The notes below the pieces were generated by a model. It did no database searches. It was not told where the DNA came from and saw nothing but the letters and a program-made list of their open reading frames with translations. DNA of 64,000 nucleotides, from contig CM114271.1 in assembly GCA_050084515.1 (NCBI GenBank), positions 17,732,001 to 17,796,000 on the forward strand, given 5' to 3'. Shown here in pieces: positions 1 to 47,965 of the stretch. Made by a program: the position numbers and the translations under genes. Position 1 is the first letter of the stretch, and each line of letters starts with the position of its first letter. Origin of the DNA: Blasia pusilla. Lineage: Eukaryota.

Positions 1-2143
1 CCATATTAGATAAAGAGACTACACTGGTGAGGTCTACGAATGGTCTTTTTTCATTCCCCTTCTATGGTTCCTCTTGAGATTCATGCATCTTGTGACAATA
101 TCAACCATCCGACAAAACAAATATATTGTCCGTATATAAAAAATTAGTAGAATAAATAAATAAATAAATGCAAAAATCCTTAAACTAAAATTTATGTCCT
201 TGAACATTATATTCTAATTTAAAAAACAAATTCACATATAACTTAAGTTTTCATACAAAATATGAAATAAGACAATAATTCGAATGAGCAATGAAACTCA
301 TATGTACTGATCTCACTTGAGTCCTTTGAGCAAATTTTATGACAATCACTTATTCTCCATGATCTCAACCCTCAACAATCAAGTACATATGAATGGCCAA
401 GGGATGCGATCGTGTGAAGAATTTGTATCTCCTTCTCTTTCATGACCTCCAACTACTTATTCTGAAATACATTGATGATTTACCATAGGCGTGGTAAAAA
501 AACTTGATGCACTCTCATCAGAACTATAACTCAAAGTGTTTCTCAAAGGGCTTATACTAACATTAAGAGCATAAATCCCATTTTAAAAAATCAGCAATAG
601 TCCTTAGATAGGACTTGATGCCTTATCCATACTTAAACAAGTCAGCAATGGAACCTAGCCACAACTTGAAGCATTATTCCTATTTTCAACGATCCGCGAT
701 GAAACATACTCCAAACTTGATATTTCTATTACCTCAACGATGTCGGCATCTATAGGTATATAATCCCTTTCTTGTTCATCAAGAGGAACGTAGAACTCAC
801 CATCGCTATAGCGTAAATTGTCAACACTCATTTATAAAGTATCCTTTGGTAGAATTTGCATTATCCATAAATATATTATAATTAAAAAAATATTTTAACA
901 TAATAATAAAATCAATAATAAATGATAATAAATCTCCACATATTAAAATTATAATATAAGTAGAGAATACTTGCTTTTTTGAGTCAGTCCACTCCCAAAG
1001 AAATGAAACTATAACGTTTGCTCAACTCAACAATCTGAACCATACATATATGAGAACAAAACAATACCAGTGAGACACTTTAGAAACTTCAAATAATGGT
1101 GAGGAAACATTAGAAACGTTCATGTTTCTTAAAGGATTTCAAACATTCAAATCATCCAATTTCTCACATCGTACCGAATGGAAAAATAGAGGAATTGTTG
1201 TGGAAAAATATAGGAATTAAGGAAACAAACGAAGAAAACCGATCATCTACTTCTTTACTTCCTCCTAAAATTAAGTGAGTGGGCAAGAAGTCAAGGAGCA
1301 CTTTTCTCTTGCCTACTAATTTTCACCTTTATGTTCAACACTCGAATTATAATTGGGAGAAAGAATATCAAACATCGAATCTCCAATATCCCCTACTCTG
1401 TAGACCTGAATTCCAAGTCGAACTCATCAAAGACATACCATCCCTCTAAATGATAGATGAAAGTGAAGGAATATTCTTCACCGCTCATGGCACCTGGGTT
1501 TGATAATAGCAATTGAAACAGAAGGCAGTGAATACAAAACCTTACGAGTTTACGAAGAATAGCATGTTCGAGGTGCGCATGCCCACCACTGACATCCCCA
1601 CAAAGCAAAAACCTTGGTTTGTACACAAAAGGTGTATAGGATCTAATCTTGATACCAAAGGAGCTAGCAAAGGCATGATCGCCACAATTGCCTTGTGAAC
1701 AAGACAAAAACATATCTTGCCAATTCCCCGCAAGCTTGCGATGCGTGGCGGAAAAATAGAGGAGAGAATGTGATCCAACATATGTTTTGCCTCGTCAAGC
1801 TCTCCAAGCTATGCGGAGGTTTTGCAATGCAAGCAAACTGTAGGATGTTTTGATGATGAAGGTGTTATTCACATTAAATTACTAATGTTTTAAGTCAATT
1901 GGTTATATTTCTACGAGACCGCGAGCCAAGGGGAGAAAGGTTGTAAGGTTTTGAAAAATGATTGGGATCCAAAAGAGTCAAGGAATTTGAGAATAGGATG
2001 CAATCAGAAATTCCCGTGTGATCATTATTGACTTTTACACGGATTGTAACATGGAATTCCAAAACCGTTATAAAAAAAAAGAAAATGAGTTAATAGTATG
2101 GATTTATGCGCTTGATGATCCTTATTGTGCACATTTGACCATT

Positions 2144-2615
2144 TGTAACATACCTCATAGAGGTATGTTACAAATAAAAACTCTCTCGTTTACAACCGAG
2201 TATATACAGCTAAAGACACGCCTACACTCTACATCTTTCATTCTTCCTCAAATATTTTCCTGGAAATAAAGGAGGCTCCTCTCTTCAGCTGATGCTTCCT
2301 CCAATTCTCTCGCCAATTTGTGATATAGTTGTGCTCCAATTTGTGGTTGGAATCCTCGATAGATGCTTCCTCTCTTTGACCGATGCTTTCTCTAGTTCTC
2401 TTGCTACTTCCTCTAACAGCTTCCTCCAGTCCTCTCACCACTTCCTTCAACAACAGTGTTGAGCTCCATGTTAGATACAAGACTTATTTGCCAACCTAGA
2501 GCGTGTACAATAACATGTGTCTTACTACACCTAGTTAGTACCAAAAGTTTCATTTGTCAGTAGAGATCTCCCAAGGGTGGGATGCAAATCAAAAGACATC
2601 CCCCCGTTGAAAAAT
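2144..2615 (-). mobile_element. Possible LTR plus polypurine-tract relic
   Basis: Minus strand reads TTTTTCAACGGGGGGA then TGTC (gypsy-like PPT/LTR junction at 2598) and ends GAGGTATGTTACA at 2144. No partner copy in the window. Confidence 0.3.
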
Positions 2616-5600
2616 AAGTCGGGCTTATGGCCTCATTCAAATTGATGGTCGGGAGAATATAATCTCATTTAAATATCTTTTAACTTTTTTTCACAAAAGG
2701 ACGTTTGAGACGGCCACTTGTAGAATGGGCTTCACTTCTTGGGGAAGGGGGAGTTACCAAACGATGTAACACCCCGCGGGGCCCCTTAGATAAGGAGGGT
2801 CTATCAATATCTACCCAAATCGAAATAACTATAAAATAGTGTACCTTTACGCTATTAATTTCACAACTTTATGCTTTCTGCCTTTGGATTTGTAGTCAGT
2901 GGATTTTTGTTTCGTACACAAGAACTTAGTTTACTTCATTTCTCTTACTCTCTACTCGTCACCTAACATCTATATGGTCCATTGTATAGAGTTTATCTTA
3001 CTTATATACTCAATAATTATACCACTTTGTTGACTAGGCTAGGACTCCTAATATCCTCAAGAGATATGCATACGATATTTTTCATTGTGGACGTGAAATA
3101 TCAATATTTTGTCTTCTTGTATTTTATTTTACTTGTGTGCTCATGCCTTGAGAGAAGCCTTTCCAAGAGTTTGATGCTTGTTACTTCATTTTAGAACTTT
3201 ATGTTCCTCGCTCATCAACTTTGTTTGTTATGTTTCACTCATTCTTTCATTCTCTACTCCACAATTATTTGTTCAATTCGTATTTAGTTTCTCTCAATTC
3301 ATAATGAATGTTTTATTCGTCTATTATTGAAAGATCATTGCCCATACTCTTCAATTCAAGCATAAATTAAAACCTTATTAAATTAGTGATGAAGAAGCAA
3401 TTATTGATGACAAAATTTGACACAACTATTTTAAATTCGAAACATATGCAATAAGAGGCCTACAAAATATAAGATTCTTAACTCCCCATAATGTTATTAA
3501 TAAAATTCTCTTAAAAATTTAGAATCATTTTTTATCTATATTATCTAAGTAAATAAATGCTTAGTTATTAAAATATTTAACCACCATTTTTGCAATAAAT
3601 ACATTGTGACACATTGTAAATTAAAAAAAGAATAAAATGGAAATGTTTTTGAAAAGGAAAATTTCTATGAAAAGATTCATTCAATTTATTGGATAAATAC
3701 TGATTGGAACTAATGAAATATAATACAAAAATTAAAACTTTGTTCTGCTAAGGATTTTTTTTTTTATTCAAAATAATTTTACTGCCAACATTCATATCCT
3801 TGTATTTTTCCATGTCATAACTCCATGACGATATGGATCGATCCTTGTAGATTCTCTCTGTCTTTTATTGTTCGGATGCGGAGAAATAAATAAAATGATT
3901 TATCATGGAAACCAACACGATTGGAGACTTTATATCTATACACGCTCGAGTAACATATACAAATATGTTTTAAAGTTAGAGTTTAAGTTAAAGTTTTAAA
4001 GTTGGAGGTGTAAGTATGTTTCAATATATACGACCAAATATAAAGGGAACAAACATTTTACTATCAATTTATAAATAACTTCTGATTTTTTCTAGAATTC
4101 TTTCGTCTTCGATACTAAGAAGTCTTTCTTATTCAATACTAAGAAGTCTCTTGTTTATGGTTTGGTCAACAAAATCTACATCTCATTGCCAAAAAAAAAA
4201 CTGTCGTCCCTTCGTATTATCCCACATGGTGTTTCCCTAAAAATTGGGGCAAGATGAAAAGATATACCTTCTTTTGTTATCACATCATATAAGATGATTG
4301 GCAATTTATCGTTGATAATGGTAGTTTTTCGTACGTAGAGCTTTGGGGCACAAGATTAACTCTAAGAAAATTGGATTAAGTTTGATCAATGTCCTCCATA
4401 TAGAAGAGGAGTATATGGTTTCAATTTGGCTAGAAAAGGTGGGGAAGGGAGAGCATAAAGAACCATACTTAGAGATCCTAAACATGGAGTGATTATTCAT
4501 TCTATTAATGTGATTTGCTTATGCGTCGATTATGTTACATGCAATTGAACTATGAAGAGATAATATACAAAGGTGAAGACAAATATTTTACATATCTCAT
4601 CATACGCTACTCGTAGTATTATTATTAATTATTTGAAATTGTCTTTCTATGTGGTAAACCAGTACGCGGTCATTGAAAATTTGGATGCGGCACCACAAGG
4701 AAATAGAATACAAGGGAGTGTGATAAATGGGGTGGGGGAGAGACAAATATTTAATTCAGAATGCAAGGTTGGGACACCACTAGGGGAGAGGAAAAAAAAC
4801 TAGAGAGGATAATTTTTGACGAGATCAAATGGATATGGACTTAGACAGATGGAACAGATCGGAGGTTGTCACGTTAATATCACACGAATATCATCAATTA
4901 TAAAAACTTAATTACATAAAATCATACAGACCACACGAATCTGTTACGTGGATTCACGGTGGATATAATTGTGAAACTCTCGTCCACGGTAGAGAGCAAC
5001 CACACAAATCAAAACAACTTGCCCATTCAAGGTGCAAAACGAAGCTTACTTGTAGAGGATGTAAATCTCGTAAAATTGATATTTCCTACTCCAAACATGG
5101 AGTTAATTTATCTGTATATCACCCATCCTTTGTATGCCATCAAATTTTTGGATGCATAGGTCTTTTATTAAATTTGGTTACATATGCGTACATCTTGTTT
5201 TTAAAATAGCATATCTACTTTGGAATGCATGGGTTAGATAAAGGAAGGGAGACTTCTTATGTTTCCTAAACAAGGAGGGAAGAGCACATGATTATTTCTC
5301 AACATAGAAGTTATAATTTATGTTTTGTTTTAAATGAGGCGAAAGATGAGAGGTTTAAGAGTAGATATGCATATTCTTTACTCTACTATATTTGATGTCA
5401 CATCCTAGATAGGAGTTATATCATATAGGTTCAAATCAAAGCTTATAAACACTTGTTTGTAAGAAAAAAAATTATGTGAGATAGCCATAGAAGCACCAAA
5501 AACCAAACTTATTTGAAATTGAAATGCACATGACATCTGTATGTTCAAGATGACTTGTTGAGGAAGAATATAACATTTGCAAGCATGTTTCCCTTTGTCT

Positions 5601-8600
5601 TGGGATGATCTTGAGTAAGATTGGCTTAGCTGTATGCTTAACATGGATCTTGTTTGGATTCTAAACTTACTTCCTCTAGTTTGAAGAGTGATTGTTACCA
5701 TCATATTTTAGGCTAAATATAAGTTAATGACCTACATCCATCCATACTATTAAGAGAGGATAACTTTGCAAATCGCAACCATCAATCCGATTGACAGATA
5801 TTTTTGGGATAATAATATAATATTTCAGAGGCACGTGTAATAATATAATACCTCAGAGGCACATGTGCAGCTAAATAAGGACATATAAAGTATAATCCTA
5901 AATTTTTTCGTATCTACCTACAAGAAGTACTACTTGAGATGGCAATTGCATAACTTGGTTCATGAATGCCTCTCAAAAGTGATAAACCATATAACGAGTA
6001 AACCAATATCTATGTACAAAGGATCTCGACGTGATATGGATTAAAGAAAGAGAGATCAATAACCATTGGTACTTCATCCCTATCCATGATTTGTGAACAT
6101 CCTCTATCCTCTTATACAAATATAGATTATGGATGGTCGTTACGCATATTCCCTTGGAATCAAAGATTACAAATTTTTGAAAAGTAGTAGATTTGTAAAC
6201 CTTTGATTCCTACAAAATAGATTGTGTGCGGAGTTTCTCTTCCAAGAGGGGTAATTCACTCTTATGGAAGAGTGACCGAGTCCAAATCCATCCATTATAT
6301 GGAGAATGATATATGGAACTCCTGAAAGATAAAAAATCTTTCCAAATGGTTATCTCGATATATATTGTACTCACAAACTTCTGAATAGTACATTATGGCT
6401 AAGTCACTCTCATGAATGGGATAATCCATTCGAGATTGTGGGATAATCCATTGAAGAGCGACAATAGAAACTCGAAAAAAATGAAGTTAAAGGTAGTGAA
6501 CCCTTGAAGATCCCTCATATTTATATACTCATAAAGGATCTAAAAGGCTAGAAAAGCTCGATCTTATCTTGTGCCACACAGCTTCCTCTCAAGACTTAAC
6601 CAATCCCATCTTAACACAAGTATATATTCTTTTAACTCATCATGAAATATCCCTTTAACTTTCTTTTGTATCCTCTAAATAATCAAACTATCATAGCCTT
6701 ATCTTATTTTCAAACCAAGAGTATTTTGGTTTAATTTTCATAAATACACTAAATCCCAAATGCTTAACTCACTACTTTTTTAATTTTCACGTTTGATTTA
6801 TAACTCATTTTCCTATAGTTGGGCTCGCACAAATAAGACATCTTAGATATAAATTTTCATTTTCCTAAATTAATAATATTAAACTTATAAAAACTATCTC
6901 TATTGCTAATAAAGTTGAAATATACATGTTGTATCTATTTTCTACACGATAACGTTAGTTATCATGAAGTTTCTTCATGAAGTTGTTTAACATAAGGGGA
7001 GGAAAGTTTCCAACTTTGGCTCTAAAGAGCGGTCTGAAATAATAATAAAGGAGTTGCTGAAGCAAGGAGGGACTAGGAAACTAAGATTGGATAAATAATA
7101 AAGAAGAAGATGGTTAGATTTAAATAACAATGAATTAGGTTTGATATTTAATCGAGTGAGTGATATAGTTAATATTTCCAAAGGGAATTTAAATAAACAA
7201 TAATTTGATTTTCCCAACAATTATTTGAAAAATATAAGTGAAATTTACTTGATCTCAAGGCATATTTCAAAATGAACCGATATTTGTCAATATTGAGACA
7301 CAGAGTTTGAGTTCGAGACGTTGGGCCAATAAGTATGAGTATTTGGTCAAGTGGAAGGGCTACCATGTGAAGGAGGTGACTCGGATTGTTGAGGAAGATT
7401 CAGAACATGCGCAAGAGGTGTTACAAAACTTCAAATGGATGCAGGAAAAGCACATGCGTTGGTACATGGAGTATATCGGGACATGACTTGAGACTTTAGA
7501 AGTTTGGGCAAAAGGCAGTTATAACTAGAACATGATAGATTTGCAATAAAGAAATACATGGATTTGGAGATTCGATGCTTAGGTGTTTGATTGCAGGATG
7601 TTTGCGGTGGTGCATGATAATGAGTATTTCCTTATGTGCTTAAGTTGTAAGTTAAGAGGAGAGACAAGGCATAGCTTTGCTGAGAGTGGTTGCATTTGGA
7701 TAAGTACAAAGCTAGAACAAGACCAAGTGTTGGGTTACTAACAATTGGGCTCGTCTAAGCGTTGGCAGGGTAGATCACTCTATTTTGGGGCTTGGGATCC
7801 ATGATCTTATTTGTAATAGCATGAGTGAACTTAGTGACGCGCCCAAATTGAATATGAGGGCAAACCAAAATTAGTATGGCTCGTGGATCTTGTAAATAAG
7901 CAGGATGTCTAGGTGTTTTGAGCAAATGAAGTCCTAGGTAGTAGACTTAGTTAGCTTATTTTGATCGGTTGGGTTAGTTTGAAGGAAGTGATGTAGACTT
8001 AATGATGAGGAAAAGCTGTGGTGTATGCAACAATCTAAGACTTAAGCCAAAAGAGGAATTGCATATTAGTTACCATATTATAATGTGATGTCAAAGGGTC
8101 GACTTCCAAAAAAGCCTTGACGTGAGAAGGTATGCGTTAACGAGGGCATCAAACTCAAAGTGGGTTGAGTGTCGCGACCTTCATAACGAAACAAGCGCCG
8201 ATGTGAAACATCATGATTAACAAGCTCACACTAGGATGGATGCGCGTCGGAGAAGTCCCTTGAATAGTATATGAGATACGAGATGCGAGTAAGGTTGACC
8301 ATTTCATGTTTCAACAATCATGACTTGTGAAAACTGGGCCAAATACTTACCAAGACTTGAGAAGAGTCGAGTTTAAGAAGAGTGGGTTGCCACAGAGGAT
8401 GAGAATCCGAATTGGAACTTGACTAGTGTTTGGGGTTTCAATGTGTATAAGGTCATAATGGCCATACTTGATGTGCATTTGAGAAAATAAGGTGGCATTG
8501 GGAAGCTTATGCAAAACCAATTCCAACGAGACAAATAGATTAGCAGGGTCCAAGAAATTGCTACAAAATTTTCAAAAGGTGATAAGGATTGAGGACCAAA

Positions 8601-9578: not shown

Positions 9579-10083
9579 TGTTAGGATAGATTGGTGGGAT
9601 CTAGCAAATTGTCTACACGAGTAGTGGAGGACAGAGCCCAGGAGGTCAAGGATGACCCGCTGAGGCCTCGGGAAACCTGAGAGAGCAGGTTTTCCCTTTC
9701 ATCTCGGCTCATTTGGACACATATAGAGAAACTTCCTATTTTTTGTAAGTTTCCATGTTGGGATATTTGACTTTCCACTTTGGGAAGTGGCCCTTGACCC
9801 GCTACAGCAAGTCAAGATCCAAGGAGGTGACCTGCGAGCATAAGTTACCGTTGAGAGGGCTTGGGAGAGGGAAGGGGATATACCTCCAAGAGAGAGAGTT
9901 TGAGAGCTCATTCTCTCTTTGTTTAAACTCTTGGCATAAGGCGGCGCAGCTATGGTCCCTTGCCTTGTGAGTGTTACCCAAGCCTCTCATTAGCAGAGTG
10001 GGTCTTTTTTGACATGAGAGAGTGTACACCTTTGAGAGTTATGGTGTGAGATGGTGTAGAGAAAGATTGGATCTTACTTTACA
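9579..10083 (+). repeat. Left LTR (TG...CA, ~505 bp)
   Basis: Starts TGTTAGG at 9579 and ends TTTACA at 10083. Its 3' ~285 bp recur at 17792-18082. No canonical PBS seen after it. Confidence 0.75.
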
Positions 10084-11849
10084 AAGAGAGAATGAGAGAG
10101 TGATAGAGTTTCATGGAGGAGCTTGCTAGTCACTTTTTTTTTGCAGGTTGGGGACCGTATTCCCTATTCAGCAGCTCATGGGAGTGCTCACCGGAGCAAG
10201 GGCAACTTTGATTTTTCTTTGCATTTGCCGATTTTTCGTGTGGAAGAGTGGCGCGTGGAATCGTTGCCCAAATTATGATAGGGATTGATTTATGGGGTGG
10301 GTTGCCCTATGTGGCCGTTGTGGGAAGCACCATGTAGCTTGCTGATTTGTATTTTTACACGTTTTACATTTTTTTGGGAGAAATCAACACGGAAGCGCTA
10401 CCAAATTTTGGGTAGGAGAAAGAGACATTGGGCTTTATGACAATTCCCGTTAGTTTTTACTGAATTTTTTTATTCGTAATATTTGTTGGTGTTTTCGTAG
10501 ATCGTGAAGCTGTGCACGCTATGCAAAAAACAATGCATAATTTGGAGTTGCGAGCAAAACGTTATAGTCAATCTTGCAAAATTGCCATTGCTAGGCAATT
10601 TCTAGGGCTAAATTGTTCAAACCCTAAACCAGCCGCCACGCCGGCGGCGGCGGCGGTCGCCGTCATAATCATCATCAAGGGTCCGCCATTGATGATCAAT
10701 GGTCAACCGTCACCATCAACGGTCAACTGTGAGTGTCAATGGTCCATCGCCTGTTGTCCATCCGTTAGTTGCCATTGCCGTTGTTACGTAGTGGAGGGGA
10801 TTCGACAACGTTCGTTTATTCTCTAACTTGCGTCGCCACCACGTACTTTGTTTTGGCCGCCACCGTAATTGCAGTTTCATCATCAACCATTGATGGCAGA
10901 TGACCTCCGGTTATGGTGTTTGAGTTTTGATTTCATGCTTCTATGTTGTGATTGGTAGCTGCTTGACAACGATCGAAGATCGTGCCGTGATGCCCGTAAC
11001 CGCAATGCGCCGTTGATTGCTGCGTCGTGCGCTCGTGGCCGAACCGCATCACCTCAATTGCAGAACCGCTCCTTCACTAAGGAGCACAGCAAGTGAATTG
11101 CTGATTGAGGAGGGTATACCGCCTCACCCCATTCCCGAGTACCGTGCTTTTTGTAGCCGTTTCGTGCCGCACCGAACCGCTCGACCTGCACCGCACATCG
11201 AGGAGATTGAGCAGCATCAGTACGAGAGGAGAATGACTTCCTGATTGGAGGAGTTGTCTTCATGACCGAGTTGGGCTCGAGATTTAGAGTTGCTGATGAG
11301 CGACATCGACACGTGTTTAGGTTACCCATTCTGGTCCTTTACCGTGCACGTGTGAGGGATTATGGGATTTGGGTAGTTTATTTGGGGATATTGGGTTGTG
11401 TGGATGCTGAGAGCACCATTTATGTATGTGGTTTAGTGGACATAGGCCTATCTGGGATATTTGGAGTTTAGGGTAGGTTATCGATGAGATGATAGCTAGG
11501 TCAATTTTCCGCACCATGTCGCGTGTTGCCGCACGTTACATGTCTCGGGGACAGAGAGTGTAGATCGACTGCCTCATGTTTGGGATGAGAGATTGAGGGA
11601 TTACTCACGACGTTGAGAGTGATCGGGTGAGAAGGGTACGAGGGTCATCAAGGCGTCCGTTCGGGACTTTGAGAGGCGAGGTGGCGAAACGGAGAGTAGC
11701 TCTGAGGTTTTACGCGCACTCGCGCAAGGTTTCGAGGATCTCCACATGAGGGACCACCTCGACCTCCTTGTGTGTCATCGTTAGACAAGGGGGAGGGTGT
11801 AGAGCACATCGCCACACATTTTGAGTGGTCCTACCAATTGGGCGTACGA

Positions 11850-12935
11850 GATGGATGACCGAGGTAGAGAACCGGGTAGGTTTTTAGGTGTAGGAGGCAC
11901 GATTGAGTTGCACGATTTCAAAGCACAGTTTAGGAGTTGGTGCGACTCCCGGCGGGCCATGAACTCTAGAGAGTTCAACCTGTTTACAACATAGAATGCT
12001 ATGTTCTTGGATTTAGAGGGGGCTCCCATGGACGATTACCATGAGTTCTCTCAGAGATATGCCCGTGAGATCGAGGCGTGGAGGCTCTACTATGACCCAC
12101 ATTATGTGTCATGGACGGAGCCGTTCCCTGATGAGGAGGAGGAGTCAAGAGAGGCTACTTCCTCTTCCACTAGTGACGTTTTAGGAGGGGTCACTCGCAC
12201 TGGACAAGTTGCATCGTCTAGTCAGGTTCATCCCAGGTTCAAGCCCGTGGTTGAGTTCTTTGCCGAGTTGAGGGCGAGCTACGAGGGGGTACGGACAGAG
12301 AAGTTGGGGAGCATCCACGACTTCCTGAGACGCCCGGGTGAGAGTTTGGGTGCGGCTTACACTCGCTGGCGCCGGTTGATCAACGTCACTCAGGGGGTTG
12401 ATCAACGTCACTCAGGCTATCCAATCCTGGTACGCGATGTTGGACCGGACCCTGCGGAAACGGGTGCAAGGGGGTGCTTCTTATGAACACCTCCCCTACG
12501 TTGAGAGATGTTTTTTGGACCGTCGAGAAAATTGAGCGCAACATGGCGGAGGAGAGGGTAGCCACCATAGGTTATGGGCAAGAGCAGTCACGATTGGCTG
12601 CACCACCTGTGCAGCAACGTGGACTCCGAGATAGGTTGACTGTGGCACCACAAGCTCTAGGAAGATAGCAGGAGGTTGTGCCACAGAGACCTGCGTCTCC
12701 ATATGCGGCTCAGCAGCTGACACCTACTATTACTTGTTGGTCATGTGGTGGAGCCCATCATCAGCGCAATTGCACTCGTGAGGGTCATGGACGTGTGCCT
12801 CATCATGGAGGAGGAGATAGTGCTGCACCGGGAGGTTATCAGTGTGACTATTGTCAAAGGTATGGTCATACACGCGCAAAGTGTTTCAGTTTACATCCTG
12901 AGTTACGTCTGGACCGAGGACCAAAGGGGCACTAG
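11850..12935 (+). pseudogene. gag: gag of the gypsy element (disrupted)
   Basis: Retrotransposon gag-like segment FLRRPGESLGAAYTRWRRL and two CX2CX4HX4C knuckles (CWSCGGAHHQRNC, CDYCQRYGHTRAKC). A 22-bp tandem duplication at 12374-12416 shifts the frame; in-frame stops present. Start approximate. Confidence 0.8.
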
Positions 12936-13749
12936 AGTGAATAAGCGGCATGGGTGGGCCTAGAGATCGTGCACCAGGTGGTCCCGTTGGGGGACGAGGA
13001 GCTGGAGTTGCCCCACAGGGTGCTGGAGGTGCCCGTGGAGGAGGTAGAGTCCTACCACCTAGACGCGTCGAGGGAGATGTCGGGCGTGAGGCTAGGATGG
13101 CTGCTCAGAAACATCAGCTACAAGAGTAGATTGCCACTACGGCGTTGAGATTACCCGATGTCGGATCTGTGGCATCGACATCATATGGAGGAGCCAGAGA
13201 TATGGAGGATCCTGGTTGGACGTGCGGGGTTGCCCAAATGGAGGCCGCCGCAGTTGTGACTTGTGGAGCAGCCGTAGAGTTGGATCCATAGCGAGGGGAA
13301 GCCGGGAAACAGACTTGGCTTCCCCAATCTTACACGTTGTCTGAGGTGATGAGGACCCCATCGATGGGTCCTGATCAGAGTTCCTAGAGAGTTGGTGATG
13401 TCATTGGTGTGCAGGCACGGAGGGCGATGGGAGAAGCAAGTGCGACGACTCCTCTTATTGATGCTCATGAGGGGCATGTGTCGAGCACGTTGTTGGGGGC
13501 GGCGACCAGTGTGTACCTTGCTGCTTTATTTTCTGCTTTCTCATGTTATGACGTTGGGGGGTACGCCCGCTAAGGCTTTTCGTCGAGCCGCTACGCTATG
13601 TTAGCGTGGATTTGGAGTTCTTGCATCATGTTTAGAGGTGATTGGAGAGGAGATGATGAACCTTCCCTTTGAGCGGATGCTGGGGCTGTCCACGTCAGAT
13701 TCATGGTAGGCTGCGGCTGCTAGGATGGCGGAGATGCCCGATAGACCCG

Positions 13750-14153
13750 CGATAGAGCATGCCATGGATTCTCTAGGTGTTGTGTTGTTGGATAAACGAG
13801 GAGAGGTCTTCCAGTTGGTGAGTTCCGGAGGTAGAGCTTTTAGTCCGCAACGCGTCTTGTTGGATTCAGGAGTGGACCGGGAACCCTTGATGTTGGGGAA
13901 AGTGTTATTCTGAGGATTGGGCTTGACGAGAGCTGATGTGGAGCGTTATCCATTCTCGATAGAGACATCATTGGGTGGAGCGAGAACCACACAGTGTATC
14001 ACCCGACAGGAGGTCGTGGTGAGGATTCGCCTAGGACATTCTACAGATGAGTCCGTGGTGCGAGCCAAAGGGATAGTGATTGATATAGAGTCCTACGACG
14101 TCTTGGTTGGTGGAGCTGTGCTATACCCGATGGGGATTTCCCTAGATTACTAG
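13750..14153 (+). pseudogene. Retroviral-type aspartic protease (disrupted)
   Basis: PQRVLLDSG active-site motif and downstream SYDVLVGG (DILLG-like) motif, split by a TGA at ~13911. Confidence 0.75.
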
Positions 14154-14574
14154 GAGGAGTCAGCGATCTATGGACCAGGATGGCAGTCTGGTGATGGACG
14201 CCTTAGCTCATAACCCGTTTGATTCACAGGTGTAGTGATCGAGCAACGGCCAAGAGAGATGACAACCTTAGTAGCATCTGGAATTGCCATCACTTGGCCT
14301 GGTGATTTGATTGAGAGACATATCCATGCAGAGGAAACTCCCATTCCTAACATTTCTATGGAGAGGAGTGTTATGATAGCTACATGATTTCGTGGAGAAT
14401 AAGTGTCGCTGTGGGGCTCGACTGAGGAGCTTCGACGATTGGCAGATGAGCACGTGCACACCGCGTGGAGCGAGACATTTGCACGGCAACATGACGGGTC
14501 TGAGGAACCCGAGGTAGTAGGGAATGCTATGATGACATCCTTAGATACCACACCCATTTTGTGGTGTATCCAGG

Positions 14575-15577
14575 AGGAGAGTATTCGAGTGTTAGATCTC
14601 TTTGGAGGTATTAGCACCGGGTTAGCTGTTGTTTTGCAGGCAAGAGTGCGAGTCCAAAATACCGGTGTATGGAGAGTGATGATGTCTCGAGGTGCGTCTC
14701 ACTACGACATGTGGCGTAGTTACACCTACCTTTTCCCGACTTATTATCTGTGTGCACGGTACAGGGGTTCTAAAGTTCCCTACCGGGGGATATTTTCTTG
14801 CTGGGGGCGCAAGACTTAGAGCGGGTAGGGACCATTGATTTGGTCATTGCCGATTGGCCATGTGAGGGCCAATCGAGTGCTGGACGAGGCAACGGATTGG
14901 CTGACACTCGCTCAGGTTTTTTTGGGAGATGTTGAGGGTCTTACGGTTGTTGCAAGAGCACTTGTCTCGTTCTCCAACCTACATTCTGGAGAATGTGCCG
15001 ATCTTAGGAGACTCCAGGTCACGGGTGGTGACGAGTGCTCATCAAGTGCGTGCCAAGATCAGCCCTGCAGTGTTCTTGGATGCGGCGAGTGTAGGTTCTA
15101 GAGCCCATCGCCCATGTCTATGGTGTACCAACTTGGTGCCCATGCGGTGTTATGGAGGGCGCATGCAAGAGTGGAGCGCCCCTTTCATTTGTTAGTGCAT
15201 TCCATTCTAGATCCTGGTCGTCGATCTTGGGCGGTGAGGCACGATGATCGACCACCATTGACTGTGGTCAACAGGGTAGGCAGGCCGCGGGCTGCCTTGC
15301 CTAGGTTTGTGAGTTTTCCTATGCATAAAAGGAGGCTAGTCTTGGCTTGGTTTGGGATGATCAAGTTCAGCGATTGGTGGAGCCCAACGCCGACAAGAGA
15401 GAGCGAGCAATGGGATTTCCCACAAGAGTGACAGCAGTACCGTCAGTGTTAGAGGCATCACGATGCTATGTCTTGGGTCACACAATGGACCTAAACATCT
15501 TAACATGGATCCTCAGCTTGGGAGTGGCTGAGCAGCGCCATATGAGATCGCGAGAGATTACAACGGTTGCGTGGTGA
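14575..15577 (+). pseudogene. C5 DNA (cytosine-5) methyltransferase catalytic domain, DNMT3-like, inside retrotransposon pol (frameshifted)
   Basis: Motifs in canonical order: I IRVLDLFGGISTG (14583-), IV IDLVIADWPCEG (14834-; PC at 14858-14863), VI YILENVP (ENV from 14989), VIII GSRAHRPCLWCTNL, IX EPNADKRERAMGFP, X RCYVLGHTMDLN. Confidence 0.9.
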
Positions 15578-15929
15578 GCCCCATGCCTACCGAGATGGTG
15601 GAGGCATTGGCTGGGGGTGAGACCCAAGGAGATCTACATACTAGGGGAGATTGAGAGAAACACCCTTGGACTTCTTGGGATGTTTTGCACGTACGCCAGG
15701 AGATGATAGCCACAACATCGAGTGTGGTTAAGGGCACTGCACGTGGAAGAGATCAAAGTTTGCAGTTGGCTGTAGGAGAGCGGCTGAGTGTTGTTGTTCG
15801 AGACGGGGTTGCACCATAGCAACCACTGATACCTACGCCGGAGAGTCCTATCGTAGTCACGATGGAGACTTGGGAGCCAGATATGGGCCCTAAGTTGACA
15901 TGAGGAGAGCGGCGCCAAATACATCATTT

Positions 15930-16858
15930 GCCCAAGAGTTATAGGAGTTGCTTTGCCTTTAGCATGGAGGATTTGGGTACGCTGAAGGGATAGGGGATCC
16001 GCATTGAGTTGTCGAGTGATACGCCAATCTTCTGACGACCCTATAGGTACAGTGATATGGAGAGGGATCTGATTCAGAGTAGGAGCCCGGACTTGGTCGG
16101 AGCAGGACTAGTGGAGATGTCGCATGGGGAATATGCATCTGCCACTGTCATGCTCGCCAATAAGGATTTGCATGGCAATTGGACGGATAGGCGGATGTGT
16201 GGGATTACCGACTTATTAATCGGAAGACGAAGTTTGATAGGTATGCCATGCCTACCCTCGAGGAGATCTATGATGCGATTGGTCACGCAAAGGTCTTCGG
16301 TTCATTGGATTTGTGAGCCGGATATCATCAGCTGCCTATCAGATTGGAGGATAGGCAGAAGAAGATATTTTCAGGCATCAATCCTCACAAGAAGGATTGT
16401 TTGTACCAGTGGCGCTTCTTACCATTTGGGTTAAAGAACGCCACGGCCGAGTTTTCACAGGGTCATGGATAGGATCTTGGCTGGTCTAGATTTTTCTAGG
16501 TGTTATTGATGAAATCGTAGTCTTTAGCGCCACGGTCGAGGAGCATGAGCGACATCTAGAGGAAGTGTTTTCACAATTGCAATTACATGGACTAAAGCTA
16601 CATCCTGGCAAGTGCAAGTTCTTCTACGACCAGATTGAGTACTTGGATCATACGATATACGTAGGGGGCCTTTGTGTTCAGCAGACAAAGGTAGAGGCTA
16701 TCTCACGCATTCCACGCCTTACAGATATGAGCCGTGTTCGCGCATTCATGGGATTGGCGAAATTATATTGGCGGTACATCAAGGGATTCAGTTTGATTGC
16801 AAAGCCGTTGACCTTGCTGGCCAAGGTGGATCACGAGTGGCATTGGGGGGATGAGTAG
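15930..16858 (+). pseudogene. Reverse transcriptase (gypsy type, disrupted)
   Basis: RPYRYS, RRMCG/DYRLIN, FGSLDL*AGYHQL, LPFGLKNA, a degenerate YIDD (reads IDE after a deletion near 16503) and LKLHPGKCKF...EYLDHTI. Confidence 0.92.
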
Positions 16859-16879
16859 GAGCAAGCATTTCAGTTGCTC

Positions 16880-17290
16880 AAGGAGAGGTTGACGTCGCGC
16901 CCATCTTGAGGAGACCGATTAGGGGCGTCCTTTCCAATTTCACACAGATTGGAGCATCTTGGGGCTTGGAGCGGTGCTCACTCAGCATGATGAGGAGGGT
17001 AGAGAGTTCATGGTGGCTTACGCTAGCCGCTCGAACAAGGTTGCTGAGGCGAAGGACAACTCGTATGAGGGTGAGTGTTTGGTTGCAGTGTGGGCTGTTG
17101 TGCATTTTAGGTGTTACTTATTCGACAATCCCTTTACCATCATCACTGATCATCAACCACTGAAGTGGTTGATGGAGTCCGACAAGCTTACAGGGAAGCT
17201 TGCGAGATGGGCTCTGTTGTTGCAGGAGTATGATTTTTAGGTGGTATATAGACCTGAGATGCTCAACCAGGATGCAGATGGGTTGAATCG
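16880..17290 (+). pseudogene. RNase H of the gypsy element
   Basis: FHTDWSILGLGAVLTQ...VAYASRS...SYEGECLVAVWAV..F...ITDHQPLKWL...LARWALLLQEYDF, then N.DADGL.R. Confidence 0.92.
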
Positions 17291-17629
17291 TAACCCATGC
17301 CCGAGTCAACAAGATGCAATTAGAGCTCGATGGCATGGAGAGAGTGTTGAGGAGTTAGTGCTAGGATGGCACTCGTGAGCCTATTTAGGCATGTTGGCTA
17401 TGGAGAGCCAGAGTGTTGAGACTTTGATGGCGAGGTCTAGTGGAGAGTCCTTGGATCCTAAGGCCAGTGAGGAGACAATAGGTGGTCGAGATATTTATGA
17501 TGATGTTTATGCCAGTACCTTCGTACTGGCAGCGTTGCGAGCACCGCGGGTGCTAGAGAGCGGGATCGGATCCTACAACGGGCCTGACGGTTCCGTTGGG
17601 AGGGGACACATGTTTTGAGGGTTTGGGAG

Positions 17630-17791
17630 GATGGTAGAGTATGCGTAGTGCGGCATCCTTTGTAGAGAGCACAACTAGTGCAACATGCCCACGAGGAGTT
17701 GGATCACTTTGGGGTGAAGCACACGTACAACTTGCTCCTGATTCAGTATTGGTGGCATGGCATGCAGGCTGACGTTACAACAGCAGCAGCA
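17630..17791 (+). pseudogene. Integrase N-terminal zinc-binding fragment (truncated)
   Basis: LVQHAHEELDHFGVKHTYNLLLIQYWWHGMQADV is the H-x-H...YWW..M..DV pattern of gypsy integrase. The sequence then jumps directly into LTR sequence. Confidence 0.8.
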
Positions 17792-18082
17792 GACCCGCTA
17801 CAGTAGGTCAAGAGCCAAGGAGGTGACTTGCAAGTATATATACCGTTGAGAGGGCTTGGGAGAGGGAAGGGGGTATACCTCCAAGAGAGAGAGCTTGAGA
17901 GCTCGTTCTCTCTTTGTTGAACCTCTTGGCATAAGGCAGCGGAGCTATGGTCCCTTGCCTTGTGAGTGTAACCCAAGCCGCTCATTAGGAGAGTGGGTTT
18001 GGTTTGACATGAGAGAGAGAGAGAGTGTACACCTTTGAGGGTATGGTGTGAGATGGTGTAGAGAGAGATTGGATCTTACTTT
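17792..18082 (+). repeat. Partial right LTR (first ~217 bp missing)
   Basis: Aligns to 9796-10080 at roughly 90% identity by eye, with a GA-repeat length difference. Terminal ACA absent. Confidence 0.85.
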
Positions 18083-20382: not shown

Positions 20383-23300
20383 ATGGAGGTCTGCATGATT
20401 AGGTTTCCCGGTCCATAGTCAGGGTTGTGCGCTCGGCTTTCCATGATGCGGTCCATTTCGTGTTCTCCGTTCGGAAGTGATTGGAATTAGGTTACCGCAG
20501 TAGACATTTTTCTGAGAAACAAAAAACACTTTTCCCGTCCCTCTGTTGGTCTATGGTCTCGACTCCGGGGATGTAAAGCCGTGAAAGATTGACCTGCTCC
20601 GACTTTTGTTGCGACCCCACCCCTCATTCACTGTTCTCGAAGGCGTGTGTCGCTGTCCAGATTGGCCGAAATTGCTCATTTTCCGACTCAGCTCTGATCC
20701 TGCTGCAGCCAAGTGTGCGGTCTTCTAGGATAGATGGGACTGCCATTTGAACTGACTCCTGAATATCTGGTGTCTTGCAGTCTATGCTTAACAGTTCGGC
20801 CTCAACGTTGCTCGAATCCGGTAGCTCTGCCCGACCTTTCGCCACTTCGTTTTCAGCGCAGTCAGCATCGTCCCCGGTTTTCCATCACGGAGGTGTGTGT
20901 TGGGACTGGCAATGCCCTGGTTTACCCCGAGCTGCTGAAGTGAAGTTGACTGATGAAATGATGGGAGGTCTATTGTATGTTCCCGGGTTCTCTATTTTTT
21001 TTGAAAGTCGTTCGAATTTTGCTACTGCAGGTCAAGGCTTGCACAATGCCAGTTACAACATGCAGTCAGTTCCAAATGCGTTGTCAACAAGAAATCCAGG
21101 GATGGGGGTGGGCCCTCTAGTGGAGCGCATCAACCAGCTGGAAGTCTGCCTTCAGGCAGATTCGGATCGAGTAATTTGCCAGTGGGATTGTCACAGGTAT
21201 CCTATTTCTTCCTCCCATTTCACATTCAGAGGCTACAGCGGAGGCACTCCCAAAATCATTTGCAGTCTCTACCTCCTGAACCTCTGTTCAGTGCAGTAAT
21301 GCTCCAAAGTATCGAATGTTCAATGCCTAGACTTGAACTTGTCCTGGAATGCCCTTAATGACGATGGACTGGTTGTACTGGTCGCAGCTATCACATGGGG
21401 GCTTGCACGGACACTCTGCAATGACAAGTCGGGCAGGTATTAGTGTAGTAGGGAATCACACTTTCAGCAGTAGCATGAATGGTGTGGGAGGTTCTGGCCC
21501 TGGTGCCGCTCCAGGTGCAGGGTCAGTGGGTAACAGAGGAGCTATAGGAGGTTTGGGAGTTTCTCCATCGCAGATGGGAGTTGCTGGACCCCGGATTTCA
21601 AGTTCGGCTGGAAACATTGGAGGCGGAGCAGGTGTCAGTTTGGCTGGTGGCGGAAGCCTTAATAGAAGTCTGAATGCGGGTGGTGGTCTCAACGTACCTA
21701 GCTTTAATGGGTCTCGTGTGAACATGGGTCCTCTTAGCAATAGTGGTGGGATTGGTGTACAAGGGCCTGGACGGCCTGTGAACTCTTCGCTACATCAAGG
21801 GGTCAACATGTCGTCTTCCACCTACAGCCCATCTGGGGACATATTGGCAATGATCAGCAGAGGTATGTTTCCATTTCAAAGCACGGTACCTAGCACTGCC
21901 TTTGTAATTTGTACCTTGCTCTACTGGTCAAGGATTTGGACGAAGCAAATTTAAATCACTTTTGAGGGGTAAATTCTTGCAGTAAGTCCTCTGGGTGTAG
22001 TGTTGATACCATTGAACACATCATACATTAGCTTACATAGTAATGTCGGCTATCACTAAATGTTGTGTTGTTCTAAGATCCTGAAACTTGTGTCATTGAA
22101 CACAGTTGAAGCTATGGTCTGTTCTAGGATCCAAATTGGTCTAGCTGTGGTCCTGAAAGAGATATGGACTGCTCAAGTTGTCTTCTGCAAACCCATCCTT
22201 CTATTCCGAGTTAGTGTGGCAGTTGTGGAATGGAATGAAGCCTTCTGCTTTGGCAGAGAGCAGTTCTGAGAGAAAACATTTGAAATTGGGTGTAGGTCTC
22301 CACTGTACATGCATCCGGGACGGCGTCTGTCATTCTCTTTCTTCCTAGGGAGGGTTGTACTTTTTACATTAGCCTTAAGGGGTGCCCCCCCTCCTTTTTC
22401 TTTCCTTGTCATTAAGACATTGATTGTGGTCATGTGTCACCTTATTCTTACTAGCTCTGTTGGCCGCTTCTGGTTCCTGTTAGTTGAAGGACAGACAAAT
22501 TAGCCACCCTTGTATTGTGCTCATGTGTCACCTTATTTTTACTAGCTCTGTTTGGCCGCTTCTGGTTCCTGTTAATAGAAGAACGGACAAGTTAGCGACC
22601 CTTTTAGTACTGTTCAGCCTCTCAATAGTGATTTGGGCACCAGTATGTCTGGCCTCTGTGGAATTACTATGGGTCAACCTCGTGGTAATAAAGGCGCCAA
22701 TAATTGACGTAAGCTTCTGTCCTAGGATCGCGGTTATCCTTTCACCCATCCAGCAATGATGGTCAGAATTTTAGAGTTGATGTTTGCCATCATCATCCTA
22801 TTTTGTTTCTTGTATGTCAGTCTTTGCAATGTCAAGTTATGGCAGTAATTGTCTAATGTAGGGATGACCAGTCTGCAGGTGTGTCATGGAGTGGCACTAA
22901 CAATTGCTTTGGGTTTTGTGTTGGGGGCTATGGTTCAGCACCGCCACAATCTGTCTCACTCCTCGGGAGCAATTTTTCCTCATCTCCAGGATCAGGGATA
23001 CAAGTACCCTCAGCTAATGGCCAACTTGGTAGCATAGGTCTAGGAAACGATGGAGGTTCAAATGATGGAGTTTCCTTTGATATGAATGACTTCCCACAGC
23101 TGACAACTCGGCAAACTTCGGGTGGAGCACTGCAAGGTCCCGTAGGTTTGTTATTTCTCCCAATCCCAAGTATGTGGTCCCGCATTTAGTGTCTGCATTG
23201 CGGTGGCTGTTAGACACAGATATCTGAAAGCGAGTTCAGATTGTGCTTGGGTTTCTTGAATGTGCTTGGGTTCTTGTGGGGCTGTGGTGTGTGGCTTACA

Positions 23301-26004
23301 AAATTCTGTTTATTTTTCACAGCTGCTCTAAGAAAGCAAGGTGTTGCTGTCAATGCTATTGTTCAACAAAATCAAGAGTTTAGCATACAGAATGAAGATT
23401 TTCCAGCGTTGCCTGGCTTCAAAGGTCAAGTTTCATCCTTGTTGGCTTTCCTGCTCTTTTGGTCTATGAGATCTGTCAAAAGGGTTCAAAGTCCTGTTTC
23501 CGACTTCATGCATTGCATTTTTAGTACATGGAAATTTTCCCATTTGATTTGTAAGGGTAAGATTATGTTGCAAATTTGATGATGGTTATTTGATGATGCT
23601 TGTGTGCCCTACTTGCAGGAGGGAGCACTGATTTGTCCTCGGAATTGCACCACAAAGAGCAGCAGCATGAGAATGCACTTGGAGCAATTCAGTCACAACA
23701 CTTCCCGGTACACAATTGAGCAAGCCTTGGATCTTAGCTTTGGCATTTGGCGAAAATGACATGCTGCTAAATGTGATAGTTCATAACAGCAGCTTTAATG
23801 TTTGTTTACTAGCTTCTATTTATCAATATAAAGCTATGTAACACACACGGGGTCAACAATGGGAGTCCTCAGATTTCATGTGCTGTAAGTCATGTTGTAG
23901 TCCAATTACATGGTTTTACTGTGTGGAAAATATAGTACATTCTGTTGCTTTTTGTGTGAAGATTACTTAGCTGCGGGTACTTGGTAGGGTTGGAGGAGGG
24001 TCTAGACTTTCTTTAAGTCTAGGTAGTCACATGGTATTCAGTGCAGACGGGGAGGTCATCCGGTTTTTCGCTGGGAAGTTCGTACGTGCCTCACCGACAG
24101 CAGCAACAGCAACAACAACATCAAGGAAGTGGAGGATCGGTGGGGATTTCATCAGGGTCGATGTCAGGAGCGAATGCTGCAGAGCTTTCACACATGCATG
24201 CTGCAGTGAGCGACAACTTCCCATCATCCCATGGCTTCTCAGCATCTTATCATTCTCAGGTTAATGCACTCCTTAGACAGCAAGGATAGTAGATTGAATG
24301 GTTGTTATAACAGACTTCTAGCTGTCAATTGTGACGGGGCATCAAGAAATTGATGAATAAGTTGGTTCTGAAGATTCATGCTAGCAGGGCTTGTTTGACT
24401 TTGTGAACTGTTAAGCAGGTTCAGGCAGTTGTACCACCAGGTTCTGGGGGCACACAGCCATTGCGGTCAGGGGGATCCTCAGGAGTGGCTGTAAATATGG
24501 GTTCCTATGACCAGATGGTACATCAATATCAGCAGCACCAACAATCACAGCTCAGCAGACTAGGGGGACATCCACAGCCGCTTGCAGCAGTTGGACAGTC
24601 GTCTAGAGATATGGGAGGAAAATCCGTACAAGGAATTCAAGCTGCCCCTGATCGATTTGGACTGCTAGGGTTGTTGAGTGTAATAAGGATGACAGACCCA
24701 GACCTGACTACGCTAGCACTGGGAACAGATCTTACTACTCTAGGACTAAATCTCAACTCCAGAGAGAACTTGTACAAAACTTTTGCGTCTCCATGGGCAG
24801 ATGGGCCTATTAGAGGGGAACCAGAATTCACTCTGCCACAATGTTATCTTGATCAATCTCCCAGGTTGCAGGTATGCTGTTAAAAAATGCTGTCAAAAAT
24901 ATCTGTCTGACTTATACTGAACAGGTGATTTGTCTGGCTCGCTAGTTGTGAACTTGACATAGCAGTTTTGACTCCTACTCTGATTAGACCATGGCAGGGT
25001 AGGAATGAACTGCCTATTCTACTAATGAAATTTAATGAATCTTTTGTTGGTTGGCAGCCGGGCTATTTCGCCAAGTTCCAGCAGGATACCTTGTTCTATA
25101 TATTCTACAGGTGCAACTCATTACTGGACCTAGTACATCTTACCCACAGCCCAATAGGTTTTTGATTGAAGCATTGACTTGCGTCTATTCATGAACAGTG
25201 TGCTGCTTTGCAATTGGAGCACAGCATTTTCACTTCTTCCATCTGGAGACAGCAGGCACATTTATCTGAGTTGAAATAAGGCCCCTGGAGCTTCTGACTG
25301 TCTTGTTTGCCTGGTGGTGGTTTTCATATGCAGCATGCCAAATGATGAGGCTCAACTATATGCTGCTGATGAGTTGTATGTCACAACTTCTGCCCATTGA
25401 CCTCCTCTATTTGGGCATGTATAGTTGGGATTAGAATACATGGTTTCTTTTCTTTCTGTACTGTATTCAGTAAGTCATGCGAGTGGTAGGATTGTGACCA
25501 TGGATTCTGTACCTCTTCGGTAGAAAGAGAGCTTCAGACATGGATGTATTTTCAACTCATGTGGTCTAGTTTCTGAAGTGTGCTTGTGGTTGGACTGGTA
25601 TATCAGGGTGACAAGGGGTTGGTTCTACCACAAAGAGCATCACATGTGGTTCACTCCTGTTCCTAATGTGGAACCTCTAGTCAAGACAAACACGTATGAG
25701 CGTGGTTCCTATTACTATTTTGATCAGAATACCTGGGAAACGGGCCGTAAGGTATGTTGATTGCTTTTGCCGAATAATAACTGAATAGTTGCATCCATGA
25801 AAATGAAGTTAGCTTTTAGTGATGAAATTTGGGCCCTTAATCTTAAATTTAAAACTAGTTAATTAATATTTGTTAGTGCTAGTATTTGTGGATTATTGAT
25901 TGTTCAATACTGACAAGAACTTGTGTGCTGGATGGGGTCAGGAAAACTTTGTCCTTCACTTCGAAATGCTCGAAAAGAGACCGCAATTACCTTCTCAGCA
26001 TTAG
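20383..26004 (+). CDS. NOT2: CCR4-NOT complex subunit NOT2-like protein (NOT2/NOT3/NOT5 family), spliced
   Basis: GT-AG exons 20383-20388 (tentative; alternative start ATG 20784), 20781-20892, 21031-21196, 21388-21862, 22939-23145, 23323-23424, 23619-23707, 24047-24259, 24419-24871, 25058-25110, 25334-25375, 25607-25751, 25942-26004. Motifs QEFSIQNEDFPALPG, DRFGLLGLLSVIRM..PDL..LALG.DLTTLGLNLNS, LFYIFYSMP.DEAQLYAADEL, RGWFYHKE, YERGSY. One apparent frameshift in exon 21031-21196. Confidence 0.93.
22423..22603. repeat. ~91-bp tandem duplication in a NOT2 intron
   Basis: ATTGTG(G/C)TCATGTGTCACCTTATT..ACTAGCTCTGTT..GGCCGCTTCTGGTTCCTGTTA...GACAA.TTAGC.ACCCTT occurs at 22423 and 22514. Confidence 0.9.
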
Positions 26005-47939: not shown

Positions 47940-47965
47940 TGTGCATTGCACATGCTTCCACTAGT
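47940..47965 (+). mobile_element. Helitron-like 3' terminus
   Basis: TGTGC-att-GCACA hairpin followed by TGCTTCCA-CTAG-T. Confidence 0.45.

Follow-up and report, generated by a model that had tools for sequence, protein, structure and literature searches.

A stretch of 64,000 nucleotides from Blasia pusilla (hereafter the window; contig CM114271.1 of assembly GCA_050084515.1, positions 17,732,001 to 17,796,000 of the forward strand) was found to hold a decayed Ty3/gypsy-type retrotransposon spanning about positions 9796-18082, in which the broken remains of a C5 cytosine methyltransferase (MT) domain lie between the aspartic protease (PR) and the reverse transcriptase (RT) (Table 1). Gypsy pol regions normally carry no methyltransferase domain. 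We consider it very likely that this segment is the MT domain of a dead, 3'-truncated element copy, and that the family to which the copy belongs follows the plan gag, protease, DNMT3-like C5 MT, in-frame UAG, RT, RNase H (RH) and integrase (INT).

Table 1. Positions of the element's features in the window (ORF, open reading frame)
Feature	Positions	Strand	Evidence and remarks
A1, 5' terminal direct repeat, ~290 nt	9796-10080	+	blastn self-match to 17792-18082, alignment
gag, two frames	11866-12905	+	tblastn with P0002 residues 9-354, 39-44% identity
Cys/His knuckle-like stretch of gag	ORF 12669-12935	+	read by eye
Aspartic protease region	13710-14180	+	D-S-G at 13863-13871 in ORF 13710-13913
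DNMT3-like C5 cytosine MT domain, broken	14556-15550	+	tblastn, motifs; 5 frame pieces, 3 in-frame stops; class from relatives
Motif I, VLDLFGGISTG	frame of 14403-14819	+
Motif IV, DLVIADWPCEGQS	frame of 14774-14935	+
Motif VI, ILENVP, and motif VIII, SRAHRPCLWCTNL	frame of 14905-15195	+
Motif IX, ERAMGF, and motif X, LGHTMDLN	frame of 15329-15577	+
Tail of gag-PR-MT frame, one extra in-frame stop	15571-15816	+	translation; tblastn with P0002 residues 1214-1243
Conserved in-frame stop, TAG CAA CCA	15817-15825	+	leaky-stop context
Reverse transcriptase, two frames	15871-16903	+	tblastn with P0003 residues 696-988; Pfam RVT_1 5.1e-9 on 16490-16858
RNase H, Ty3/gypsy type	16923-17354	+	Pfam RT_RNaseH 4.5e-32 on 16923-17240; tblastn 69%
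Integrase start, H2C2 zinc-binding domain only	17504-17785	+	Pfam Integrase_H2C2 4.7e-8
A2, 3' copy of direct repeat	17792-18082	+	abuts truncated integrase

An earlier reading of the sequence without database searches (the sequence-only reading) had described six ordered C5-MT motifs on the pol strand, placed between protease and RT and decayed like the neighboring domains. Translation and alignment to the family bear this out, with motifs I, IV, VI, VIII, IX and X following one another in canonical order across three reading frames. The MT part of the Marchantia protein P0002 (residues 872-1206) aligned to the domain by tblastn in five pieces, between which the frame shifts near 14657, 14914-14923, 15141-15147 and 15317-15320, and another shift lies at 15550-15571. 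Residues 530-905 of the same protein matched 13530-14657 at 43% identity, covering the protease. Identities in the alignment of the MT part were 48-70%, and the summed E-value for the PR and MT stretch was 1.4e-150, a match far beyond chance. The window domain retains 34 of 41 positions with at least 90% conservation across 163 family sequences, including the catalytic Cys, the Glu of ENV and the first Arg of motif VIII; the seven lost positions include the Gly preceding W-P-C and the second of the motif VIII arginines. Together with five frame breaks and three in-frame stops, these losses establish the decay of the domain.

The window is collinear with the Marchantia proteins in a single tblastn chain from gag (11866) to the integrase zinc finger (17785), the integrase being matched at about 17620-17785, and the MT segment has no termini of its own. 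RVT_1, RT_RNaseH and Integrase_H2C2 succeed one another in Ty3/gypsy order, and the rve domain was seen only in relatives. Homology to full-length relatives ends at 17776-17785, which corresponds to residue 2011 of the 2352 of P0233, and tblastn with full-length relatives found no integrase core or C-terminus (~340-400 residues) downstream in the window. Some of the upstream domains were likewise below Pfam detection in the window: the gag pieces and the protease piece gave no Pfam match, and zf-CCHC did not match the knuckle-like stretch, while the protease of relatives was identified as Asp_protease_2 or gag-asp_proteas. No further tblastn match to family proteins was obtained elsewhere in the 64 kb. 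The window copy is a dead, 3'-truncated and inert fossil, and it cannot make any of the products proposed below. The observed/expected ratio of CpG was 0.71-0.75 in the element versus 0.64-0.70 in the flanks, so that the element is not lower in CpG and is not set apart by it. The corresponding CWG ratio was 0.77-0.86 in the element versus 1.1-1.2 in the flanks, and a G-over-C skew of ~0.2 on the + strand runs across the element region.

Sibling copies were examined through a whole-genome sequencing sample (about 1 in 100 of one run mapped onto the element). A total of 22943 reads fell on the element, of which 83 aligned at ≥99% identity, 1339 at 95-99% and 21521 at 90-95%, at a depth per orientation of ~50 to 450 along its length. 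This depth and divergence indicate many diverged sibling copies. Across the conserved MT bins (14815-15216) depth was ~500, like that of gag and RT. An index of sequencing runs listed no RNA run and six DNA entries with small shares (0.05-0.15), which do not enter these counts. Over the full length of the element, 944, 705 and 1069 reads were obtained from three RNA-seq runs, with the first mate mostly on the minus strand; provided that the libraries are stranded in the usual way, this represents sense-strand RNA of the family. In all three RNA-seq runs, a 31-nt skip at 16739-16771 was also present (7, 13 and 8 reads; 0 DNA reads), the ends of which (GC..TG) are not those of a standard intron. 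At 15281 a one-letter length difference was found in 11/15, 9/10 and 26/37 RNA reads versus 1/162 DNA reads; the RNA thus seems to derive from only a few of the copies.

These reads also bear on the possibility that the frame breaks are assembly errors and that the window copy is intact. At seven frame-break sites (14912, 15138, 15571, 16452, 16503, 16895 and 16921) most mapped DNA reads differ in length from the window, and at most of these sites so do the majority of RNA reads; at 14912, for instance, the difference occurs in 298/375 DNA reads and in 8/8, 14/14 and 8/12 RNA reads. However, the length-differing reads are mostly 90-95% alike and therefore derive from sibling copies and not from the window copy, and a minority agrees with the window (77/375 at 14912). 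In-frame stops, seven lost conserved residues and a missing integrase core would also be left unexplained. Moreover, among 544 places within 11800-17800 where the reads differ from the window, the window has A/T and the siblings G/C at 297, and the reverse holds at 71. This roughly 4:1 A/T excess is a signature of deamination decay. We therefore regard an intact window copy as very improbable.

The methyltransferase family: members, enzyme class and constraint

The 96-residue piece encoded at 14905-15195 matched 12 proteins at E ≤ 0.01 among 61 candidates, with identities of 55-70%. Eleven of them are "hypothetical proteins" of Marchantia polymorpha, and 10 of the 12 carry a precomputed PF00145 assignment, some along with RVT and RNase H. 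When the MT part of P0002 was used as query, 57 proteins were retrieved at E ≤ 0.001 among 8000 scored candidates, with sources that included Marchantia, Calypogeia fissa (76%), Sphagnum fallax (51%), the chlorophyte Monoraphidium and one label of a bacterial metagenome-assembled genome. Domain mapping assigned 39 of these 57 to the order GAG-PR-MT(-RT-RH) and 18 to the order RT-RH-MT-INT. An exhaustive profile search followed, of which the best 150 listed matches were checked; because the profile of 985 positions included integrase columns, its totals of 20306, 3481 and 809 representatives are not counts of MT-bearing elements. The 202 proteins at hand after this search all matched an MT-only model, and comprised 46 of PR-MT type, 129 that are either of RH-MT-INT type or MT-INT proteins without a pre-MT part, and 27 MT-only fragments. 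Name look-ups added three Closterium strains of the PR-MT type and Scenedesmus of the RH-MT-INT type, to which Haematococcus also belongs according to a later protein search. The nearest clusters in the ESM Atlas carry PF00145.

The sequence-only reading had envisaged intact copies with PR, MT and RT in one open frame. Such copies exist: the proteins P0147, P0224 and P0233 (2188-2358 residues) are each open through PR, DNA_methylase, RVT, RNase H and integrase, with a CCHC gag knuckle ahead of PR in P0147 and P0233, and with a terminal PHD finger, as in the chlorophyte type, in P0224. A tree of 163 MT domains and the window domain, read through with X at its breaks, was built with FastTree; it placed all 40 PR-MT tips, those of Marchantia, Calypogeia, Sphagnum and Closterium among them, and one MT-only fragment in a single clade (support 0.991), and the window within the bryophyte part of that clade. 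The MT domain is an integral and conserved part of this family, which occurs in liverworts (Marchantia, Calypogeia), the moss Sphagnum, the zygnematophyte Closterium and Blasia pusilla.

The chance is negligible that what we see in the window is a one-off event, in which a single copy captured a fragment of a host DNMT or the element hit a host gene. The usual lack of such a domain in gypsy pol is the only point in its favor, whereas the same domain recurs at the same place in related proteins of several genera (39/57 and then 46/202), three of which are open from PR through MT and RT to INT. The read depth over the MT bins, the lack of termini around the segment and its collinearity with the family argue in the same direction. 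None of the outcomes that the sequence-only reading had named as refuting it came about: relatives give significant C5-MT matches, other copies carry the domain, and the segment is collinear with the family.

As to the class of the enzyme, profile and fold tests were run on relatives and not on the broken window copy. A profile of Marchantia-type proteins searched against the PDB ranked DNMT3A first (1.1e-9), followed by DNMT3C and DNMT3B, HaeIII, DNMT2, HhaI and DRM. With a broader MT profile the matches were DNMT3A (E 2.1e-22), DNMT3C (3.7e-20), DNMT3B (7e-20), DRM (7e-13), HhaI (1.8e-8) and DNMT2 (4e-5), and there was no match to DNMT1. For an MT-only member, the structure predicted by AlphaFold (pLDDT 89.4, pTM 0.90) was closest in Foldseek to DNMT3A (E 1.6e-19, TM 0.70/0.79), and every chain listed was DNMT3A, 3B or 3C. 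The motif order is canonical, unlike that of the rearranged DRM. Judged by these profiles and by the modeled fold, the MT domain is closest to DNMT3 among cellular enzymes, in agreement with the DNMT3-like class that had been proposed for it. The family shares with cellular DNMT3A/3B/3C the motif order I-IV-VI-VIII-IX-X and a short target-recognition region; it differs in an identity to the solved structures of only ~22-24% and in its fusion to Gag-PR. No PWWP or ADD part was found in the family proteins scanned with Pfam.

Several lines of evidence point to constraint on the domain. Conservation among the 163 sequences is 97-99% at the catalytic Cys, the Glu of ENV, the arginines of motif VIII and the glycines of motif I. 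Out of 597 pattern matches in metagenomes, 140 loci were confirmed and the best 80 kept; in 60 of these 80 the whole MT domain lies in one frame. Ratios of nonsynonymous to synonymous substitution rates (dN/dS; NG86 method, MT domain only) were 0.03-0.30 in five stop-free pairs (dS 0.05-1.5). Across 66 pairs from one PR-MT subgroup the median was 0.29, and the most distant member of this subgroup gave 0.08-0.10 at dS ~1.1. For 170 pairs of decayed moss-type copies the median was 0.53 (range 0.28-1.12), as expected with neutral decay mixed in. The comparison among copies suggested by the sequence-only reading thus came out in favor of purifying selection, under which the MT domain evolves. Moss-type loci (L001-L019 and others) carry 1-11 in-frame MT stops and no frameshift, a pattern that fits transition-driven decay.

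A conserved stop and the terminal repeats

An in-frame stop lies between the MT tail and RT at one shared position in the window, in the diverged locus L025 and in 19 of 20 matched moss-type loci; L015 has a sense codon there. The context is TAG CAA CCA in the window, TAG or TAA followed by CAA CCC in the moss-type loci, and TAG CAG TTA in L025. Among 30 loci in which MT and RT share a frame, the stop is present in 18; 10, all of another PR-MT subgroup, have none, and two show scattered stops only. Four Marchantia gene models and relatives of 1330-1450 residues end 60-125 residues past the MT domain. The sequence UAG_CAR_YYA is described in PMC3542737 as the type I leaky-stop signal of tobamoviruses. 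Window positions 15817-15825 match UAG CAR YYA, and simple arithmetic gives a chance of 1 in 512 for the six letters after the stop; both the window and L025 agree with all six. Tobamoviruses are RNA viruses, while the present element is a retroelement for which readthrough is predicted.

The MT domain ends the gag-PR frame and is followed by the in-frame UAG, and it would therefore be included in a Gag-PR-MT product as well as in any readthrough product. The proposal that the enzyme was expressed within the element's polyprotein is supported, and is refined by the conserved UAG that separates MT from RT-RH-INT. In active members, MT would form the C-terminus of an abundant Gag-PR-MT precursor, and RT-RH-INT would be made only by readthrough of the UAG (context CAR YYN). 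On the strength of the reading frames and stop contexts we lean toward this arrangement, with Gag-PR-MT as the main product. From the leaky-stop layout one would expect the enzyme to accompany Gag and to exceed RT and integrase in amount.

The direct repeats A1 and A2 bracket the window element and are 88.7% identical over 293 columns (blastn self-match). In relatives the repeats are of a split A...B-A-B type rather than plain long terminal repeats. Among 33 long loci examined, eight have a long-range A pair, and five of these (L031, L032, L037, L042 and L055) show this layout: a 5'-terminal A repeat of ~290-340 nt has a second copy close to the 3' end, where it is flanked by two B copies of 110-185 nt. 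In the loci inspected (L031, L032) a purine run precedes B1. No long repeats were found in L020. Such a layout is unusual for an element with a DDE integrase.

Relation to known elements and weighing of the evidence

The Gypsy-DNMT3 kind of element is already known from streptophytes, having been described in Klebsormidium nitens as KnitGypsy-Dnmt3, a Gypsy element with a Dnmt3-type domain at Ka/Ks < 0.2 (de Mendoza et al. 2018, PMC5890265). Similar wording appears in later sources, as "streptophytes (Gypsy-DNMT3)" in bioRxiv 10.64898/2026.05.21.726589 and as DNMT3s embedded in retrotransposons "as previously reported in streptophytes" in PMC12344493. The available text of PMC5890265 does not mention Marchantia, Physcomitrella or Sphagnum, and our literature search returned no description of the family in a bryophyte or other land plant and no citation of the Marchantia gene identifiers, although supplements, which may list copies, lay outside that search. 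What is new here is the range over land plants and Closterium, the abundance and transcription in Blasia pusilla, the conserved layout with its predicted leaky stop, and the chlorophyte relatives in which the domain lies between RNase H and integrase.

By analogy of architecture, the present family and KnitGypsy-Dnmt3 would belong to one kind. In each, a DNMT3-type domain that has no introns and does not show the DRM rearrangement lies inside a Gypsy coding region; each has the DIRS-like A-coding-B-A-B layout (here in five of the eight related loci with a long-range A pair) and purifying selection on the domain, as far as PMC5890265 describes its element. The hosts differ, the element here belonging to a bryophyte clade with named relatives in liverworts, Sphagnum and Closterium. 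The available text of PMC5890265 says nothing of a conserved UAG following the domain. SymbioDIRS-Dnmt3 of Symbiodinium, from the same source, likewise combines a DNMT3-type domain in retroelement pol with A...B-A-B repeats, and methylates CG de novo in yeast (PMC5890265). Its host, however, is a dinoflagellate, and its backbone is that of a DIRS element with a tyrosine recombinase, whereas the present family encodes a DDE integrase (H2C2 and, in relatives, rve).

The chlorophyte RT-RH-MT-INT-PHD elements (Scenedesmus, Monoraphidium, Haematococcus) share with the PR-MT family the methyltransferase clan (~35-40% identity) and the types of RT, RNase H and integrase; like P0224 of that family, they have a PHD finger behind the integrase. 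They differ in the place of the MT domain, between RNase H and integrase, and in motif IV, which is often W-E-C (4/5 aligned RH-MT-INT rows, instead of W-P-C); many have open frames of 1.5-3.3 thousand residues. The RH-MT-INT group includes loci L054, L056-L059, L061, L068, L069, L071, L072, L074, L077 and L080 and proteins P0038-P0048, P0058 and following, with the PHD finger after the integrase; open frames are common among them and reach 3329 residues (L074). Two proteins labeled as bacterial metagenome bins (P0057, P0290; Spirochaetia, Minisyncoccia) are this eukaryotic retroelement, and the bins therefore probably hold algal contigs.

Several points weigh against our reading as a whole or against parts of it. 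The Pfam check for DNA_methylase put forward by the sequence-only reading succeeded in most of the relatives scanned, and on the window's own pieces gave a single match below threshold. Against a gathering cut-off of 22 bits for PF00145, four of six relatives passed (31.9-51.3 bits), the two that failed (P0005, P0010) being gene models without part of the domain, and in a second scan three of four proteins passed, the RH-MT-INT protein P0058 giving no match. The window's own MT pieces did not reach the threshold: the best, 14774-14935, scored 17.4 bits (E 0.0031), the other four of the five had no PF00145 match at all, and long translations of the window in a single frame, with stops written as X, had none either. 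The tree contains family sequences only, without host DNMT3, DRM or bacterial sequences, and is therefore unrooted, so that "DNMT3-derived" describes the ranking by profile and fold. The window has the A repeat pair only, with no B repeat detected on either side of its A2. The commonest moss-type copies, with CAA CCC, end in C instead of A and fall short of the CAR YYA consensus, and one PR-MT subgroup (10/30 loci) lacks any stop in the gap. The strandedness of the RNA libraries is assumed. KnitGypsy-Dnmt3 was compared by its description in PMC5890265. No Klebsormidium protein was found among the matches listed (57, 150 and 120) or in name look-ups, in searches that were word-limited or gave best matches without names; kinship with KnitGypsy-Dnmt3 therefore rests on architecture and repeat layout. 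Finally, the KnitGypsy-Dnmt3 domain gave no methylation in yeast, a result its authors call inconclusive (PMC5890265).

The last two points each lend weight to an alternative. On the one hand, the missing Klebsormidium sequence would be expected if the bryophyte and Closterium elements had captured DNMT3 independently of KnitGypsy-Dnmt3. The domain also sits at two places in related elements (PR-MT-RT versus RH-MT-INT), and the module has therefore moved or been captured more than once. Nevertheless, we hold such convergence to be fairly unlikely, given the unusual A...B-A-B layout found in five family loci and in KnitGypsy-Dnmt3 as published (PMC5890265), and given the limits of the searches just described. 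On the other hand, the negative yeast assay, together with the W-E-C of motif IV in the RH-MT-INT rows, could indicate that the domain is conserved without acting as a DNA methyltransferase in the life cycle, being instead RNA-acting, DNA- or chromatin-binding, or structural. Human DNMT3B was likewise negative in that assay (PMC5890265), and the yeast result therefore says little. The near-invariance of the catalytic, motif I and motif VIII residues listed above, and a fold and best profile matches that belong to the DNMT3 DNA enzymes, with the tRNA enzyme DNMT2 ranking far lower, make a role other than DNA methylation quite improbable.

We thus return to the domain as a DNMT3-like methyltransferase encoded by the element. 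Cytosine methylation is the main route by which plants silence transposons, and a transposon with its own de novo-type methyltransferase is therefore counter-intuitive. The enzyme may methylate cytosines in the cDNA or insertion newly made by its own element, a role that has been suggested for the DNMTs of retrotransposons; by analogy with those systems we offer this tentatively, as one possible function. It is rather doubtful that one old gypsy lineage, shared by Zygnematophyceae and bryophytes including Marchantia polymorpha, still makes a working DNMT3-type enzyme that methylates its own cDNA or insertions, and perhaps host DNA; Gag-level abundance would follow, within that reading, from the place of MT ahead of a leaky UAG of the tobamovirus type. 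The one published gypsy case concerns a charophyte alga, with an enzyme that had no clear activity in yeast (PMC5890265). The present family is already among the annotated proteins of Marchantia polymorpha, where it went unrecognized, and this is a genetically tractable land plant in which to ask what the enzyme does. If bryophyte elements do carry a working enzyme, the function of transposon-borne DNMTs would become testable there.

Other features of the window

Outside the element, AT-rich blocks (G+C 0.32-0.35) occupy positions 1-8000, 30001-32000 and 46001-48000, and G+C is 0.43-0.55 elsewhere. The ORF at 24407-24883 was considered as a candidate NOT2-type protein and dropped for want of Pfam support; an ESM Atlas search with one host ORF of the window gave no usable match. 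An open ORF of 278 residues at 50946-51782 (+) carries a SPARK domain (PF19160, 1.2e-21) and is probably a host gene exon. A tandem pair of a ~92-nt unit, with copies 89% alike, lies at 22423-22606. At 62370-63676 (+), two open ORFs belong to a copia-type element (Retrotran_gag_2 4.6e-22, Pol_BBD 2.1e-19) that runs toward the end of the window.

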